Positions 5,262 to 47,365 of a stretch of 64,000 nucleotides of DNA are shown here, in pieces. The notes under the pieces are model-generated. The model did not search any database. It was not told where the DNA came from and saw only the letters and a list, made by a program, of their open reading frames with translations. The stretch comes from a virus, in the IMG/VR virus record IMGVR_UViG_3300031949_000008, positions 32,001 through 96,000 of that record; one strand, 5' to 3'. The position numbers and the translations under genes were made by a program. How positions within the stretch are numbered: the first letter of the stretch is position 1; every line of letters starts with the position of its first letter.

Positions 5262-5805
5262 TAGTATTTTGTCCTTCATATGAATCTGACATATCATCAT
5301 AAGATTCAATTTTTATTGGTGCATTCCAATTAATATCATTATTAATTTTTTCCATAATAAGAATTGGACGTGTTAACATTTTAAATCCAGATCTATTATA
5401 AATAGCTATAGCATCTTTATTATCTTCAAAAACTTCTACACGAATTTTAAATAAACACATAGAATTGAAAGCTAAATCCAGCATACTTTTCACTGCTTCT
5501 TCTGCATATCCATTTCCTCTATATTCATCTAATAAAAGCACACGACCTAATATCGCTATTCGTTTTCCGATGTCTATATTATAAAGAGCAATTGTACCAA
5601 TACTTTGTCCAGATTTTAATCTAATAATAAACATCTGATCTGTTTTACAATCTTGATATTTTTCATACCATACTCGCTGCTGCTCTTTAGAAATTTCTCC
5701 TGTGTCAAAAAATTTATCTTTATTCTTATTCCTTGTCTCTCTCAACCACTCAATATCCTTCGCATTAATAGGCCATAAAATTAATCTTTCTGATTTAAGT
5801 AGCAT
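5251..5805 (-). CDS. GNAT N-acetyltransferase (RimJ/PseH-like)
   Basis: SERLIL, IGTIAL, EYRGNGYAEEA, N..AIAIY...GF. Confidence 0.88.
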   Translation of the reverse strand: MLLKSERLILWPINAKDIEWLRETRNKNKDKFFDTGEISKEQQRVWYEKYQDCKTDQMFIIRLKSGQSIGTIALYNIDIGKRIAILGRVLLLDEYRGNGYAEEAVKSMLDLAFNSMCLFKIRVEVFEDNKDAIAIYNRSGFKMLTRPILIMEKINNDINWNAPIKIESYDDMSDSYEGQNTNVA

Positions 5806-6682
5806 TTAATATCTCCTTCCAGGTTTTTCCAATAGTCTCAATTGAATATCTATCTATTACATCCTTCCTTGCTTGTTCTGATATTCTAAATCTTAACGAA
5901 TAATTTTTTAGCAATTCTAAATACATCGCAAATTCTTCTTTAGTATTATTAAAACAAATAAATCCATTTTTCCCTTGACGAACAATAGATATATAAGCTG
6001 GAATAGGGCTAGCAATAACAGGCACACATAATATCATTGATTGTGTAATTCGATTATTTCCTTTAGCTAATTCATATTCTGGTAACTCTCCTAGAAATGG
6101 TATTAACATCACATCTGCATCCATCCAATCTGCCCATACGGTCTTTAAATCCCATAATTTGGTAGCTTTTGATGTAGCACTGATTGTAATGTATTTATAT
6201 CCAATGCTTTCTACTAATGGACGTATTTCTTCTGCCTGTGGGAAATGTAATAACGTACCAATCCATATTGCAGTTAGAGGTTCTGTAGGTGTATAACATA
6301 ATTTTCTAAGATGTCTAGGAGTTTCATAAGCATCTAAAAGTACATAAGATTTTTTAATATAAGATTTAAAATAATCCTGAATATATTCAGAACCAAATAA
6401 TGCTACATCTATGACTTGTAAAGCAGGAATTGCTTCTGTATATAAATCATCTAATATATAATATGTTTTAATATTATGTTCTTTATATATTTTAATAATA
6501 TCTGTAATTCGATTATCAATAATTTTTTGAAATATTATTGCATCTAATGTTAAATCTATTTCTGGAAATTGTAATATTGTAGAATTTATATTATGTTCAT
6601 TAAACCAATTATGAACTTGATAGCCCATTATACGACTTGAGGCCGTATTCATATCACCATTCATATACCAACCTATGTTCAT
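5795..6682 (-). CDS. GT-B glycosyltransferase-like protein
   Basis: ASSRI, DD-containing N-domain, K.NNR...M...VPVIASP..Y...G.NG. Confidence 0.8.
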   Translation of the reverse strand: MNIGWYMNGDMNTASSRIMGYQVHNWFNEHNINSTILQFPEIDLTLDAIIFQKIIDNRITDIIKIYKEHNIKTYYILDDLYTEAIPALQVIDVALFGSEYIQDYFKSYIKKSYVLLDAYETPRHLRKLCYTPTEPLTAIWIGTLLHFPQAEEIRPLVESIGYKYITISATSKATKLWDLKTVWADWMDADVMLIPFLGELPEYELAKGNNRITQSMILCVPVIASPIPAYISIVRQGKNGFICFNNTKEEFAMYLELLKNYSLRFRISEQARKDVIDRYSIETIGKTWKEILNAT

Positions 6683-44281: not shown

Positions 44282-44680
44282 TCAATCGTCTATATCTTCT
44301 CTTTTAAGAAGTTTCAAGCGTTTTGACAGAGGCATGACATAGGTTTTAGGATCTTTTGCTGTAGATTTATATTGCATAAATTCTATACCTAAATCTGCTT
44401 GATCTGTTTTAATTTGTAAATAAGGCATTATTAATAATAGAAAATCTGCAGCTGCTTTATCTTTCCATTTTGCTTTATATTTACCATCTGCTCGTTTTCC
44501 TATTACTGCACCAAATTTCTGTAAAGCAGTCATAAGCTTAAAATTTGAAGCAGTTATCCATACAAATAAACAATGTTCATCTACCACTTCTTCAGGAATA
44601 ATTGTATGAATAATATTAATACTACCTATTGTATCAAAAACTCCTGCCGCATAAGCAATATCGCAATCTTTGTACTGCAT
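44282..44680 (-). CDS. free-standing degenerate LAGLIDADG protein
   Basis: YAAGVFDTIG (catalytic acidic position replaced by I); FL..I.PYL.IK..QA. Confidence 0.7.
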   Translation of the reverse strand: MQYKDCDIAYAAGVFDTIGSINIIHTIIPEEVVDEHCLFVWITASNFKLMTALQKFGAVIGKRADGKYKAKWKDKAAADFLLLIMPYLQIKTDQADLGIEFMQYKSTAKDPKTYVMPLSKRLKLLKREDIDD

Positions 44681-44698: not shown

Positions 44699-44728
44699 TA
44701 TAGGGGCCGAATCTAATCAGCCCCTATA
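44699..44728. terminator. GC-rich hairpin downstream of capsid exon 3
   Basis: Minus strand TATAGGGGCTGA-TTAGAT-TCGGCCCCTATA; no clear U tail, so it may be a stabilising stem-loop. Confidence 0.5.
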
Positions 44729-44741
44729 GTTAAAGATTAAA

Positions 44742-45422
44742 CTAGATTAGCCGGTCACTCCTGTGAGCATTCCCATTTTTGTTAATGATATCTAAATTAT
44801 TGATATCATACTTGGACATTTCTGCCAAGTTCTGCATATTCAAATTATATGCAGATCGGACTGTAGCATCATCCTCTTTAATAGGAGCCTCTCGCTCAGT
44901 CTCTACGCCTGACTTCTGTCTTGGCTCGGAATTATCATCGCAGACTTTTCCCGATTTCAGAGAGGTTTTACAAGAGAAATTACTTTCTCCAGGCACGCTT
45001 TTTAAACCTGACAGTTTCTCTTTATAATATTCACGAACTAATATATCGGCTTTTGTCATTCCTCTAATATAAGCATGACAAACTTTTTCTTGATATTCAA
45101 TTGCTATTAAAGCTTGTTCATACTTTTCTTTTAGCCAAGGAAGAATAGTTTGTAAGAATTGTTTTGCATTTTCTCGTTCCACTACATAAACAAATAGTTC
45201 ACGATAACCATGTTCTTTATTTTTCTTACAACTAGTTCTTGTAACAAAACCAATATTAATAGTGTCTTTTATCCATTGCAAAAGTTTTCTATTAGCCATA
45301 GTAATTTGTATACGTAAGTAATAATGAACTTTACCAGTTTTAGCTCGTTTATTACGAACAATATATACACATCCTTCACTATCAAAAACTCCAGCAATAT
45401 AAGATAAATCTTCTTTATTCAT
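44742..45422 (-). CDS. intron-encoded LAGLIDADG homing endonuclease (intron 2)
   Basis: YIAGVFDSEGCV; the frame starts in the P1 loop and runs through the ribozyme core and past the 3' splice site. Confidence 0.85.
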   Translation of the reverse strand: MNKEDLSYIAGVFDSEGCVYIVRNKRAKTGKVHYYLRIQITMANRKLLQWIKDTINIGFVTRTSCKKNKEHGYRELFVYVVERENAKQFLQTILPWLKEKYEQALIAIEYQEKVCHAYIRGMTKADILVREYYKEKLSGLKSVPGESNFSCKTSLKSGKVCDDNSEPRQKSGVETEREAPIKEDDATVRSAYNLNMQNLAEMSKYDINNLDIINKNGNAHRSDRLI

Positions 45423-47365
45423 AAATATTATCCAGTTACTCCGGTCAATAAGGCATGCTTCTCTTCATTATGGAACTCAAAGCCGATTTCGCAAATATAC
45501 TGATCTTTTACGAAATCGTCTCCTGGATGCTGAATATCAGCTTCCATCGTTACGTCTCTATTCTGAAGATAGCGATAAACCATCTCGTCGAGTTTCAACG
45601 CAAACGCATAGCCACCATACAAAGAAGTATTCGACACAGAACCAGCGTTTTCTAGCATATAGTCCTTGATCAAATTCAAGGTTCCATGAGGAGAGAGATA
45701 CTGAGCAATTGCAATTCCGTAGGTTTTATCCTTGGAATACATCTGCAATTTGCCCTGCGCCCATTGACTAATTACGGATATGATAAGAGGAGAAGCCAAT
45801 AAATACACTTCGTCTCCACCAAATCTCGTCACTGTCCTAATGAAAGCCTCAAAATCGGATTCAGTAAGAATTCCGCCAACTGCTGTCACGTTTGTGCTGA
45901 TAAAATAATCAGCTCCACCTGACGTTCGCCGTGCGTGAGAGATAGTTGCATCTAACCCACTCGACGTGTCTTCTAACCGCTCGCCATATAAAGCCATACG
46001 CTCGATGTCTCGCATTAACTCAATACCCTTTACCTTCCGCTCATACGCACGATAATTTCCGCCGTACAATTCAGAATTTAACATCGAATTAGTCACCTCA
46101 ACGGATTTTCTAATAGTCTGTAGATAATTGAAAACACGAGCAGCTTTGCGACTCTTGGACACTAATGCAGTAGAAGCAGAACCTTCCTCAAATGCCGCAC
46201 CGATGATCACCATAGTAGAAGAATTTGCTGCACTAGCTGCAGTTGTTGCGCCATACGCTCTAATAGCCGTAACCGCACATGCTGCAGTTGCTGTAATAAG
46301 AATAACTTCACCAGTAGCAGGAATCTTAACGAGATCATACTTGTTAAAGTAGTTACCTTCGTTAGTTGCCACAGTAAAATTAGTCGCAGCAGATGTAGCA
46401 GAAGCTGCCAAAGATGACCAAGATGGATTTAAGTCGTTTTCAGGCCATTCGATTGTAGTATTAATAGCAACTCGTTTATTAAGACGAGAAACTAGAACAT
46501 ACAAAGGCAATCTGTTACTTTAAGACCTATTTCTAGGCGGATAGTTATTTCTAACTATCTCTACATATCACTATGTAGTTCGGACTATATCATCAACGAA
46601 GTATTAAAACTTTGTTGGCTTCCCGTATAGTCTCTGAGGGAGATGGTGGATTATGTTTTAAATCTAGTAATTCTTGAATTAACTTATTAAGTATTTCATC
46701 TTGATCAAGTGGTTTCCAATCAGGATCAACATTCCATCCCGTCCATCGTGATCCTTGAATCTTTTTAAAACCACCTTTATAACCAAGACTATCTCTATAT
46801 TCAATTAATTCTAAGAACTTATGTACTTGATCTCGCTTATTGTAAATGTAAGGTAAAATTCCTAAAAGAACTTTCTTACAATTTCCTTTTCCTTGTACTA
46901 CAATTGAGATTGCCCATTTTCTATTAGGTCTATTATCTTTATAAGTTCTATAATAAAACCCAATCTTATTTTCTTTATAAATTATACTAACTTTCTCAAT
47001 CATACGAGGATCAGTATTATCAATTTTAATTCTACAATAAAAGCCCTTGGTTACTAATAATTCACCAGTTTTTTTACTTAGATTCTTTCTGGTACACCAA
47101 TTAGCTTCTAATGATCCTTCTCCATCAATAATACCTGCGAGCCAAGACCACCTTATCTTCCTGCTGATTGTCTCTTCGTCCATACTTTATTCCTCCTTGG
47201 GAAATGGATATGAGATATTCCAGCATCAGGGATGCTTTATAGCCACCCATTTTACTAAGCGGCTTCTGGCTGTAAAAGATAAATTTTATCAGCCATGTCA
47301 ACGACTCTCAAGTTCGACAATATATTCTGAGAACCAGTTGCATTCGTTACCATTGTAGCTGCCAT
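44747..47365 (-). CDS. major capsid protein (SU10/DUF5309-like), spliced; exons 47365-47258, 46507-45455, 44773-44747; 395 aa
   Basis: Exon 1 MAATMVTN...IYLLQPEAA joins PLYVL; G.AFEEG, NYLQ, RDIE..ALYG, SPHG.L, E.G.E patterns; follows the scaffold gene. Confidence 0.9.
44774..45454 (-). mobile_element. group I intron 2 in the major capsid gene
   Basis: P3 CCTCTC/GAGAGG, P AAATCGGGAA, Q AATTCCGAG, R GTAGAGACTGA, S GCTACAGTCCG, P2/P9/P9.1/P9.2 hairpins, terminal G 44774; IGS GTGC pairs with exon GCAT. Confidence 0.85.
46508..47257 (-). mobile_element. group I intron 1 in the major capsid gene
   Basis: P1 GCCGCT/GGTGGC with U.G at the splice site, P TGATGCTGGAA, Q AATCAGCAGG, R TCAGAGACTATA, S GATATAGTCCG, terminal G 46508; in-frame TAG TAA directly after exon 1. 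Confidence 0.93.
46593..47183 (-). CDS. intron-encoded LAGLIDADG homing endonuclease (intron 1)
   Basis: WLAGIIDGEGS; AAGGAGG RBS inside the intron. Confidence 0.88.
   Translation of the reverse strand: MDEETISRKIRWSWLAGIIDGEGSLEANWCTRKNLSKKTGELLVTKGFYCRIKIDNTDPRMIEKVSIIYKENKIGFYYRTYKDNRPNRKWAISIVVQGKGNCKKVLLGILPYIYNKRDQVHKFLELIEYRDSLGYKGGFKKIQGSRWTGWNVDPDWKPLDQDEILNKLIQELLDLKHNPPSPSETIREANKVLILR

Follow-up and report, generated by a model that had tools for sequence, protein, structure and literature searches.

A phage capsid-gene group I intron that begins with an in-frame copy of its own 3' exon and carries an endonuclease gene read through the ribozyme

The DNA analysed here, which we call the window, is a stretch of 64,000 nucleotides (bases 32001-96000) of the 110,227-bp virus record IMGVR_UViG_3300031949_000008, a metagenome-assembled virus contig judged 98% complete. 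Its minus strand carries an SU10-type major capsid gene of 395 codons, interrupted by two group I introns, and it is the second of these, inserted shortly before the end of the gene, that is described in the following. The open reading frame (ORF) at 46510-45428 (-) matches the SU10 major capsid protein profile PF17236 (E 2e-38) and is aligned to the last position of that profile. Full-length capsid relatives have ~395 residues, and a tblastn search with one of them (P0005) placed its residues 1-36 at 47365-47258 and its residues 37-395 at 46507-45431. The gene and its second intron are composed as follows (R1 is a covariance model of the intron family, described further below; names in L and P designate loci and proteins of relatives).

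47258..47365 (-): capsid exon 1, codons 1-36 (tblastn with P0005, 97% identity over residues 1-36)
46508..47257 (-): capsid intron 1, group I, of the same family as intron 2 (P1 pairing at the exon end and in-frame join read from the sequence; R1 match)
45455..46507 (-): capsid exon 2, codons 37-387 (351 codons), ending in ...EEKH (PF17236; tblastn with P0005)
44774..45454 (-): capsid intron 2, 681 nt, after codon 387, holding the tail copy, the endonuclease ORF and the ribozyme in that order
45453..45458 (-): 5' strand of P1, the last four exon and first two intron bases, complementary to 44998-44993, with the splice site between 45455 and 45454
45428..45454 (-): first copy of the 3' exon (copy 1), lying within the intron and continuing the frame of exon 2, ALLTGVTG plus TAA (sequence, six-frame pattern search)
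44742..45422 (-): homing endonuclease ORF, 226 aa (Pfam, phrog_5046)
44993..44998 (-): internal guide sequence, 3' strand of P1 (aligns with the guides of L128, L129, L132 and L013)
44747..44773 (-): copy 2, the native 3' exon, GMLTGVTG plus TAA (identical to the tail of six relatives)

The end of the capsid gene is thus present twice. Read without splicing, exon 2 runs on into ALLTGVTG and a stop codon (45454-45428); read with T45455 joined to G44773, past the terminal G 44774 of the intron, it continues into GMLTGVTG and a stop codon (44773-44747), and the predicted capsid product has 395 aa, spliced or unspliced. These coordinates, both readings and the equal length of their products had been put forward in a first-pass annotation made from the letters alone, and the sequence and its translations on the minus strand bear them out. 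The same annotation had remarked that the two copies use different codons, as indeed they do: only 17 of their 27 bases are identical, the last six codons hold six codon differences, each of them synonymous, and amino-acid changes are confined to the first two codons (A/G and L/M). A loose tail-plus-stop pattern, searched in all six frames, has two sites in the 64-kb window, and both are the copies. In the relatives the pattern gives one match, at the capsid stop, wherever it matches at all, next to two stray minus-strand matches elsewhere, in L081 and L112. The confinement of the pattern to the two sites argues that the duplication of the tail is not a chance match.

Six of the eleven closest relatives (P0004-P0008 and P0011, 78-87% identity) have exactly the tail of copy 2, which is the commonest in that group, and at the protein level copy 2 is nearer to the close relatives than copy 1, whose initial Ala is seen only in relatives at ~54-62% identity and in none above 70%. 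Ala and Leu at the two variable positions of the tail are both natural in the capsid family. Since both tails lie within the natural variation of the family, it follows from the sequence that splicing is optional for the capsid protein, as had been proposed, and that the intron begins with what we will call a surrogate 3' exon, in frame. The flank 3' of the copy 2 stop resembles the stretch of L001 just upstream of the terminator-like hairpin of that locus, which indicates that copy 2 sits in its native context. When the intron-less junction is reconstructed, a 5-nt inverted repeat with a 3-nt spacer appears (45459-45455 and 44770-44766), centred 1-2 nt 3' of the insertion site, the right arm of which is destroyed by copy 1. 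This inverted repeat could plausibly be the half-site pair of a homodimeric LAGLIDADG enzyme, or could be due to chance.

The 3' part of intron 2 is a group I ribozyme, whose elements, all on the minus strand and with helix coordinates read by hand from the numbered sequence, are these.

44973..44990 (-): P2 hairpin, 7 bp, GUAA tetraloop (aligned as the first hairpin of RF00028)
44832..44972 (-): ribozyme core (covariance models RF00028 and R1)
44965-44960 with 44893-44888 (-): P3
44954-44949 with 44931-44926 (-): P4
44945-44934 (-): P5
44925-44907 (-): P6
44901-44897 with 44863-44859 (-): P7, the guanosine-binding helix
44886-44872 (-): P8
44854-44832 (-): P9
44774..44831 (-): peripheral region with P9.1, P9.2, the conserved 3' tail and the terminal G 44774 (likeness to intron A of L001)
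44829-44811 (-): P9.1 hairpin
44810-44783 (-): P9.2 hairpin

When the Rfam model RF00028 was run on 44740-45010 alone (271 nt), its positions 1-253 aligned with 44996-44832 (31.4 bits, E 1.6e-6). The second model, R1, whose training set consisted of eight ORF-less introns from other phages and left out the window element, has one full-length match in the window, at 44972-44832 (model positions 1-142, 88.1 bits, E 7.6e-19). The window element tops the R1 scores among the searched sequences outside the training set, followed by the introns of L129 (79.7 bits), L132 (77.0 bits) and L128 (76.5 bits), and an R1 search of the 110-kb genome found no further copy of the ribozyme beyond the two capsid introns. 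Over 95 nt of its 3' part, the element shares 82% identity with the ORF-less intron A of L001. When the family was folded as a consensus, P3, P4, P6, P9 and P9.1 were recovered, and 24 of the 29 pairs had compensatory changes. Across the family all seven pairs of P3 show such changes, and in 25/25 members P7 is closed by a pair that covaries (G-C or A-U). In the sub-family that bears P2, compensatory changes occur in 19 of 54 pairs, and P2 itself is maintained by them. The RF00028 alignment and the family consensus folding give the same helices, and conservation within the family extends to the P9.1 loop and to the 3' tail. The complete core noticed in the first-pass annotation is therefore borne out by two covariance models, and we conclude from alignment and covariation that the ribozyme is a bona fide and, as it appears, undamaged member of a phage group I intron family.

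Both splice sites can be predicted from the sequence. The guide has a single fully Watson-Crick partner site upstream of the ribozyme, at 45453..45458, and the resulting P1 consists of six contiguous pairs (duplex -9.6 kcal/mol), with U45455 opposite G44996 as the U-G pair at the splice site; P1 is as short as had first been noted, if slightly longer in its pairing. The sister introns of L013, L128, L129 and L132 follow 5' exons that end in A-U, and each has a guide that starts G-U, on the 5' side of P2 at a distance of 2-6 nt. The L013 intron, which lies in an unrelated gene, has the same four-base exon end and the same guide as the window intron. On the other side, the terminal G44774 closes the conserved 3' tail of the family, and joining there restores the frame as well as the tail of the close relatives. 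The guide and the terminal G coincide exactly with both borders of the tail duplication.

Other placements of P1 were considered and rejected. By analogy with the P2-less introns A and B of L001, the purine run just upstream of the exon end could pair with the pyrimidine strand 44979-44972; this strand, however, is the 3' half of P2, aligned as such by Rfam and kept by compensatory changes in the sub-family, and the pairing would moreover leave a 1x2 internal loop at a distance of two pairs from the splice site. A second, proximal 5' splice site at 44995 is ruled out, the bases there being the guide itself. Over 10 nt, 45460-45451 resembles 45000-44991, which could be taken for a target-site duplication but is better explained by the P1 complementarity over a six-base palindrome.

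The endonuclease lies in the P1 loop. The start codon of its ORF is 5 nt past the stop of copy 1, and the ORF ends 5 nt beyond the native capsid stop. Copy 1, the 5-nt spacer and the endonuclease gene are held in a P1 loop of ~450 nt, versus 4-13 nt in the ORF-less sisters. A single-motif LAGLIDADG domain occupies ~45422-44997 (the first ~130 residues), and the remainder of the ORF reads through the whole ribozyme. The protein matches PF14528 with 28.4 bits (cut-off 22.5), PF00961 with 25.2 bits (cut-off 23.1) and phrog_5046 with E 5e-23. Over residues 2-113 it can be aligned, if weakly, with I-CreI and I-MsoI, and in this sequence alignment its motif ends in Glu-Gly where that of I-CreI ends in Asp-Gly, the position of the acidic catalytic residue being filled. 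The gene has no evident ribosome-binding site. Two close homologues from other samples, P0121 (93%) and P0122 (85%), show the same read-through of the ribozyme, to residue 193, and their amino-acid differences within the ribozyme part, mapped by hand from the codons, fall in the P6 and P8 loops and at the P4/P5 junction; those of P0122 would allow P8 to have a GNRA loop like that of the sister introns. The contigs that encode P0121 and P0122 were not found by peptide-pattern scans of viral and metagenome contigs, nor by an exact 20-nt ribozyme pattern in metagenome contigs, which did find sister introns.

Two relatives show the components in other arrangements. The capsid protein of L001 is 91% identical to that of the window, and its gene is broken by at least five introns, the first of which (A) is ORF-less and ~220 nt long. 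Between the capsid stop and a conserved downstream gene, L001 carries a free-standing LAGLIDADG gene (5377-5841, 154 aa), 32% identical to the window protein over residues 8-141; the C-terminus of its product aligns with window residues ~135-142, exactly at the start of the guide sequence. In L122 it is the last capsid intron, within codon 379, that has an endonuclease in its P1 loop, and it has no exon copy (core 48.7 bits). Its endonuclease ORF starts ~30 nt past the splice site with its own Shine-Dalgarno sequence and stops just before the guide, and the unspliced reading of this intron gives a truncated, aberrant capsid protein (P0149). The window element differs from it in having a surrogate tail, in being without an evident ribosome-binding site and in an ORF that is not stopped before the ribozyme.

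Taken together, we lean towards reading 45454-44774 as a composite mobile group I intron that would still be splicing and whose endonuclease cassette would have been captured along with the abutting end of a capsid gene. Spliced messenger RNA (mRNA) would then give the native tail and unspliced mRNA the surrogate tail, each with a capsid protein of 395 aa, and the endonuclease would be made from unspliced RNA only, probably by ribosomes that terminate at the surrogate stop and restart 5 nt later. Because the endonuclease ORF covers the whole catalytic core, a given transcript should be able to have this ORF translated or its ribozyme folded, but not both at once. Thanks to the surrogate tail, transcripts used for the endonuclease would still deliver a complete capsid protein, and the choice would be free of cost to the capsid. 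As to its origin, the endonuclease cassette may once have adjoined the end of an intron-less capsid gene, in the position that a related one still has in L001, until a one-sided illegitimate recombination joined it to an ORF-less intron at this site and carried the abutting capsid tail along. The simplest history would require just one illegitimate junction, between an L001-type left part (capsid, tail, endonuclease) and an ORF-less intron after codon 387.

Several observations weigh against a composite intron that still splices. P1 has only four pairs on the exon side and must close over ~450 nt, P10 amounts to one pair at most, and ribosomes translating the endonuclease would melt the ribozyme. 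In DNA, the relatives are not clearly closer to one copy than to the other (against L001, copy 1 matches at 21/27 and copy 2 at 20/27 bases; against other relatives the picture is mixed, the sites being too few), so that the foreign origin of copy 1 rests on two residues. The junction of exon 2 with copy 1 is unsupported by a second assembly, and a search for short capsid fragments ending in the surrogate tail found none. The comparison with relatives, which the first-pass annotation had called for, brought the comparators L001 and L122, but among ~150 capsid homologues and 68 loci no intron after codon 387, with or without an ORF; the order of events proposed above is therefore inferred. Finally, Rfam scans of the whole window and of 3.3 kb around the site gave no group I match, and the 31.4 bits of RF00028 lie below the curated Rfam gathering threshold of 50 bits. 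RF00028, however, also left the two ORF-less capsid introns of L001 undetected, even at E 10 in a 600-nt search, which shows that it is insensitive to this intron family. The missing Rfam match at threshold would speak for the idea that the element is no intron at all but an endonuclease with a duplicated C-terminus, next to a chance likeness of a ribozyme. We consider this scarcely credible in view of the full-length R1 match by a model from which the window was left out, the end-to-end alignment of RF00028, the 82% identity over 95 nt to one of the ORF-less introns within the L001 capsid gene, and a guide and terminal G that fall exactly on the borders of the duplication.

A rather unlikely explanation, though one to be reckoned with, is that the arrangement is real and the ribozyme does not usefully splice in vivo. 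The capsid protein would always end in copy 1, the endonuclease would act as a free-standing gene, and the ribozyme and copy 2 would be decaying untranslated 3' sequence, like the displaced C-termini of fungal mitochondrial genes, which are often unexpressed (PMC3630166). The wide span of P1, the minimal P10 and the overlap of the endonuclease ORF with the ribozyme, which would set translation against folding, all fit this account, and with copy 1 in place there would be no selection for splicing. It is at odds with a ribozyme that has all helices intact and outscores every searched sequence outside the training set of R1, with a copy 2 that retains the exact tail of the close relatives along with frame and stop, and with the changes in P0121 and P0122 that map by hand to loops, as structural constraint predicts. 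A very recent event would equally explain such intactness, which makes this counter-evidence weak. The first-pass annotation had itself suggested that recombination with an intron-less allele stranded a still-intact intron; the relatives do favour such a recombination, of an endonuclease-bearing, intron-less allele type with an intron, as the origin of the element; a stranding does not follow from this, and the ribozyme looks as intact as that of any sister. More improbable by far is an assembly chimera, in which two co-occurring alleles, one intron-less with a free-standing endonuclease behind the capsid stop and one with an ordinary composite intron, were joined within a shared, near-identical endonuclease gene. 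The record is a metagenome-assembled contig, both parental arrangements exist (L001, L122), and the left junction is without independent assembly support. Yet a chimera would require identity of the endonuclease genes over at least one assembler word, which by itself would mean that the gene had moved very recently from one context to the other; in other samples, P0121 and P0122 confirm the right-hand fusion, while being silent on the left one, and the sequence bears no mark of a join.

Beyond the native capsid stop lie two features.

44699..44728 (-): GC-rich hairpin past the native capsid stop, possible capsid terminator (read from the sequence; a comparable hairpin stands in the same place in L001)
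44282..44680 (-): conserved LAGLIDADG-like gene, 132 aa, outside the intron (phrog_5046, E 4.5e-6)

The hairpin, with its long loop and no T run, was not called by a consensus terminator scan, and the promoter and terminator scan was otherwise uninformative. In 14 relatives a homologue of the 132-aa gene (36-47% identity; including L001:5934-6323) follows immediately after the capsid gene, independently of whether the capsid gene of the relative carries introns. In the window and in L001 its motif is without the acidic residue, Ile or His standing instead. The product is probably a domesticated, non-cutting LAGLIDADG protein, and a maturase-like or DNA-binding role would be a guess. Capsid intron 1 has a LAGLIDADG ORF at 47183-46593 (-) that matches phrog_5046, and its 3' core is matched weakly by R1 (24.6 bits, 46718-46561). 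This ORF also overlaps the core (46593-46640): as read from the sequence, P7, P3' and P8 lie within its final codons, and the stop falls in the 3' strand of P8. A blastn search of the capsid region against GenBank phages gave no match, and tblastn found distant capsids only.

The capsid gene of this phage group is a hot spot for introns, with at least nine insertion sites across the relatives, near codons 25, 31-36, 60-65, 184, 287-298, ~320, 372-374, 379 and 387 (L001:1643-5349; L068, L071, L074, L081, L122; proteins P0043, P0051, P0078, P0080, P0105, P0113 and P0120). In L001, five introns stand in one 395-codon gene, two of them ORF-less and ~170-220 nt long. ORF-less sisters are likewise present at other sites and in other genes, and the compact phage group I family to which they belong is widespread (L001:1718-1937 and 1971-2141; L013, L024, L033, L053, L056, L126-L132). 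It is readily found by R1 and is marked by a conserved P7/J8-7 segment, the P9.1 loop and the 3' tail. A motif search found the P7-P3'-P8-P7' segment in many viral contigs, with P8 hypervariable yet always paired. The sub-family with a GNRA-looped P2 consists of the window element, L013, L128, L129, L132 and L028. The sister in L013 (12675-12944, -) is ORF-less and interrupts an unrelated capsid-like gene whose exon ends in ...VALH; its match to the exon end of the window would be as expected if site choice in the family rests on few P1 pairs. Two same-strand introns of the family occur within a few hundred bases of each other in L033 (48-500, -) and in L128 (501-635 and 882-1030), which indicates that genes with several introns are not restricted to this capsid family.

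Selfish elements have two known ways of limiting their cost, self-removal by splicing and replacement of the displaced gene end, and the window element would combine both. It sits in the most highly expressed late gene and should be harmless there, spliced or unspliced. A bolder reading, which we hold to be less likely than not, is that the exon copy is more than a scar and is kept because it makes the host gene independent of what becomes of the intron. Along one route the ribozyme would fold and splice, giving the native tail and no endonuclease; along the other, ribosomes would stop at the surrogate and restart on the endonuclease, melting the ribozyme and giving the surrogate tail and the endonuclease, with functional capsid protein along either route. 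Virions would then contain two capsid isoforms, and the element would be the first preserved intermediate of the pathway from free-standing to intron-borne endonuclease. If so, a selfish element would be tapping the most heavily translated late message at no cost. Three stages would in any case be found within one phage group: a free-standing endonuclease, a clean intron with an endonuclease in P1, and a merged element with a piece of the host gene. That mobile introns arise from an endonuclease and an ORF-less intron sharing a target has been considered before, the recombination product having been inferred and not seen with its scars. Automatic annotation ends the capsid gene at the surrogate stop, and such elements will for that reason be overlooked.

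Among known introns, those of the Azoarcus type (IC3) and the cyanobacterial tRNA introns resemble the window intron in their small core, in a short P1 with an exon end C-A-U opposite a guide that starts G-U-G, and in a P2 with a GNRA loop just 3' of the guide. The sequence is also similar in the P4 3' strand, P6 and J6/7, as judged from the Azoarcus intron, the alignment run here being that to RF00028. Unlike those introns, the one described here has a protein-coding host gene, additional P9.1 and P9.2 hairpins and a much reduced P5.

Mobile group I introns with homing endonucleases are well known from phages, as in td, nrdB and sunY of T4 (PMC3984707), and for Cluster J mycobacteriophages the splicing of introns in capsid genes has been reported (PMC3706429). 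As in T4-type introns, a ribozyme of the self-splicing type interrupts the gene of a conserved phage protein, the endonuclease ORF lies in a peripheral loop, an in-frame stop follows soon after the 5' splice site, and spread would be expected through homing into intron-less alleles. Unlike in these introns, the in-frame stretch before the stop is a surrogate 3' exon, the ORF occupies the P1 loop and reads through the entire core, and the host is the major capsid gene.

In this surrogate exon the element recalls the endonuclease ORFs of fungal mitochondria that come with a duplicated foreign C-terminus, in atp6 of Allomyces and in atp6, atp9, cox2 and nad3 of Glomus, the two Glomus atp6 copies being 63.5% identical in DNA with mainly synonymous changes (PMC3630166). 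The order is the same, with the gene body followed by the in-frame C-terminal copy, the LAGLIDADG gene and the displaced native C-terminus; the copies are here too ~63% identical in DNA (17/27) and differ mostly by synonymous changes, and the native copy matches the close relatives in protein. The window element differs from the fungal ones in the complete group I ribozyme between the endonuclease and the native tail, in duplication borders that are splice sites and leave the native tail usable, in its phage host, and in a copy of only eight codons.

Mobile introns have been proposed to originate when a free-standing endonuclease gene recombines illegitimately into an intron, and collaborative homing is known from psbA of phage S-PM2 and from the DNA polymerase genes of T3 and phiI (PMC3984707). 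As in collaborative homing, related endonucleases exist within one phage group in free-standing (L001) and intronic (window, L122) form, and the illegitimate recombination that has been postulated would give a product like the window element. In the published cases the partners are either separate or cleanly merged, whereas the window element keeps a flanking piece of the host gene.

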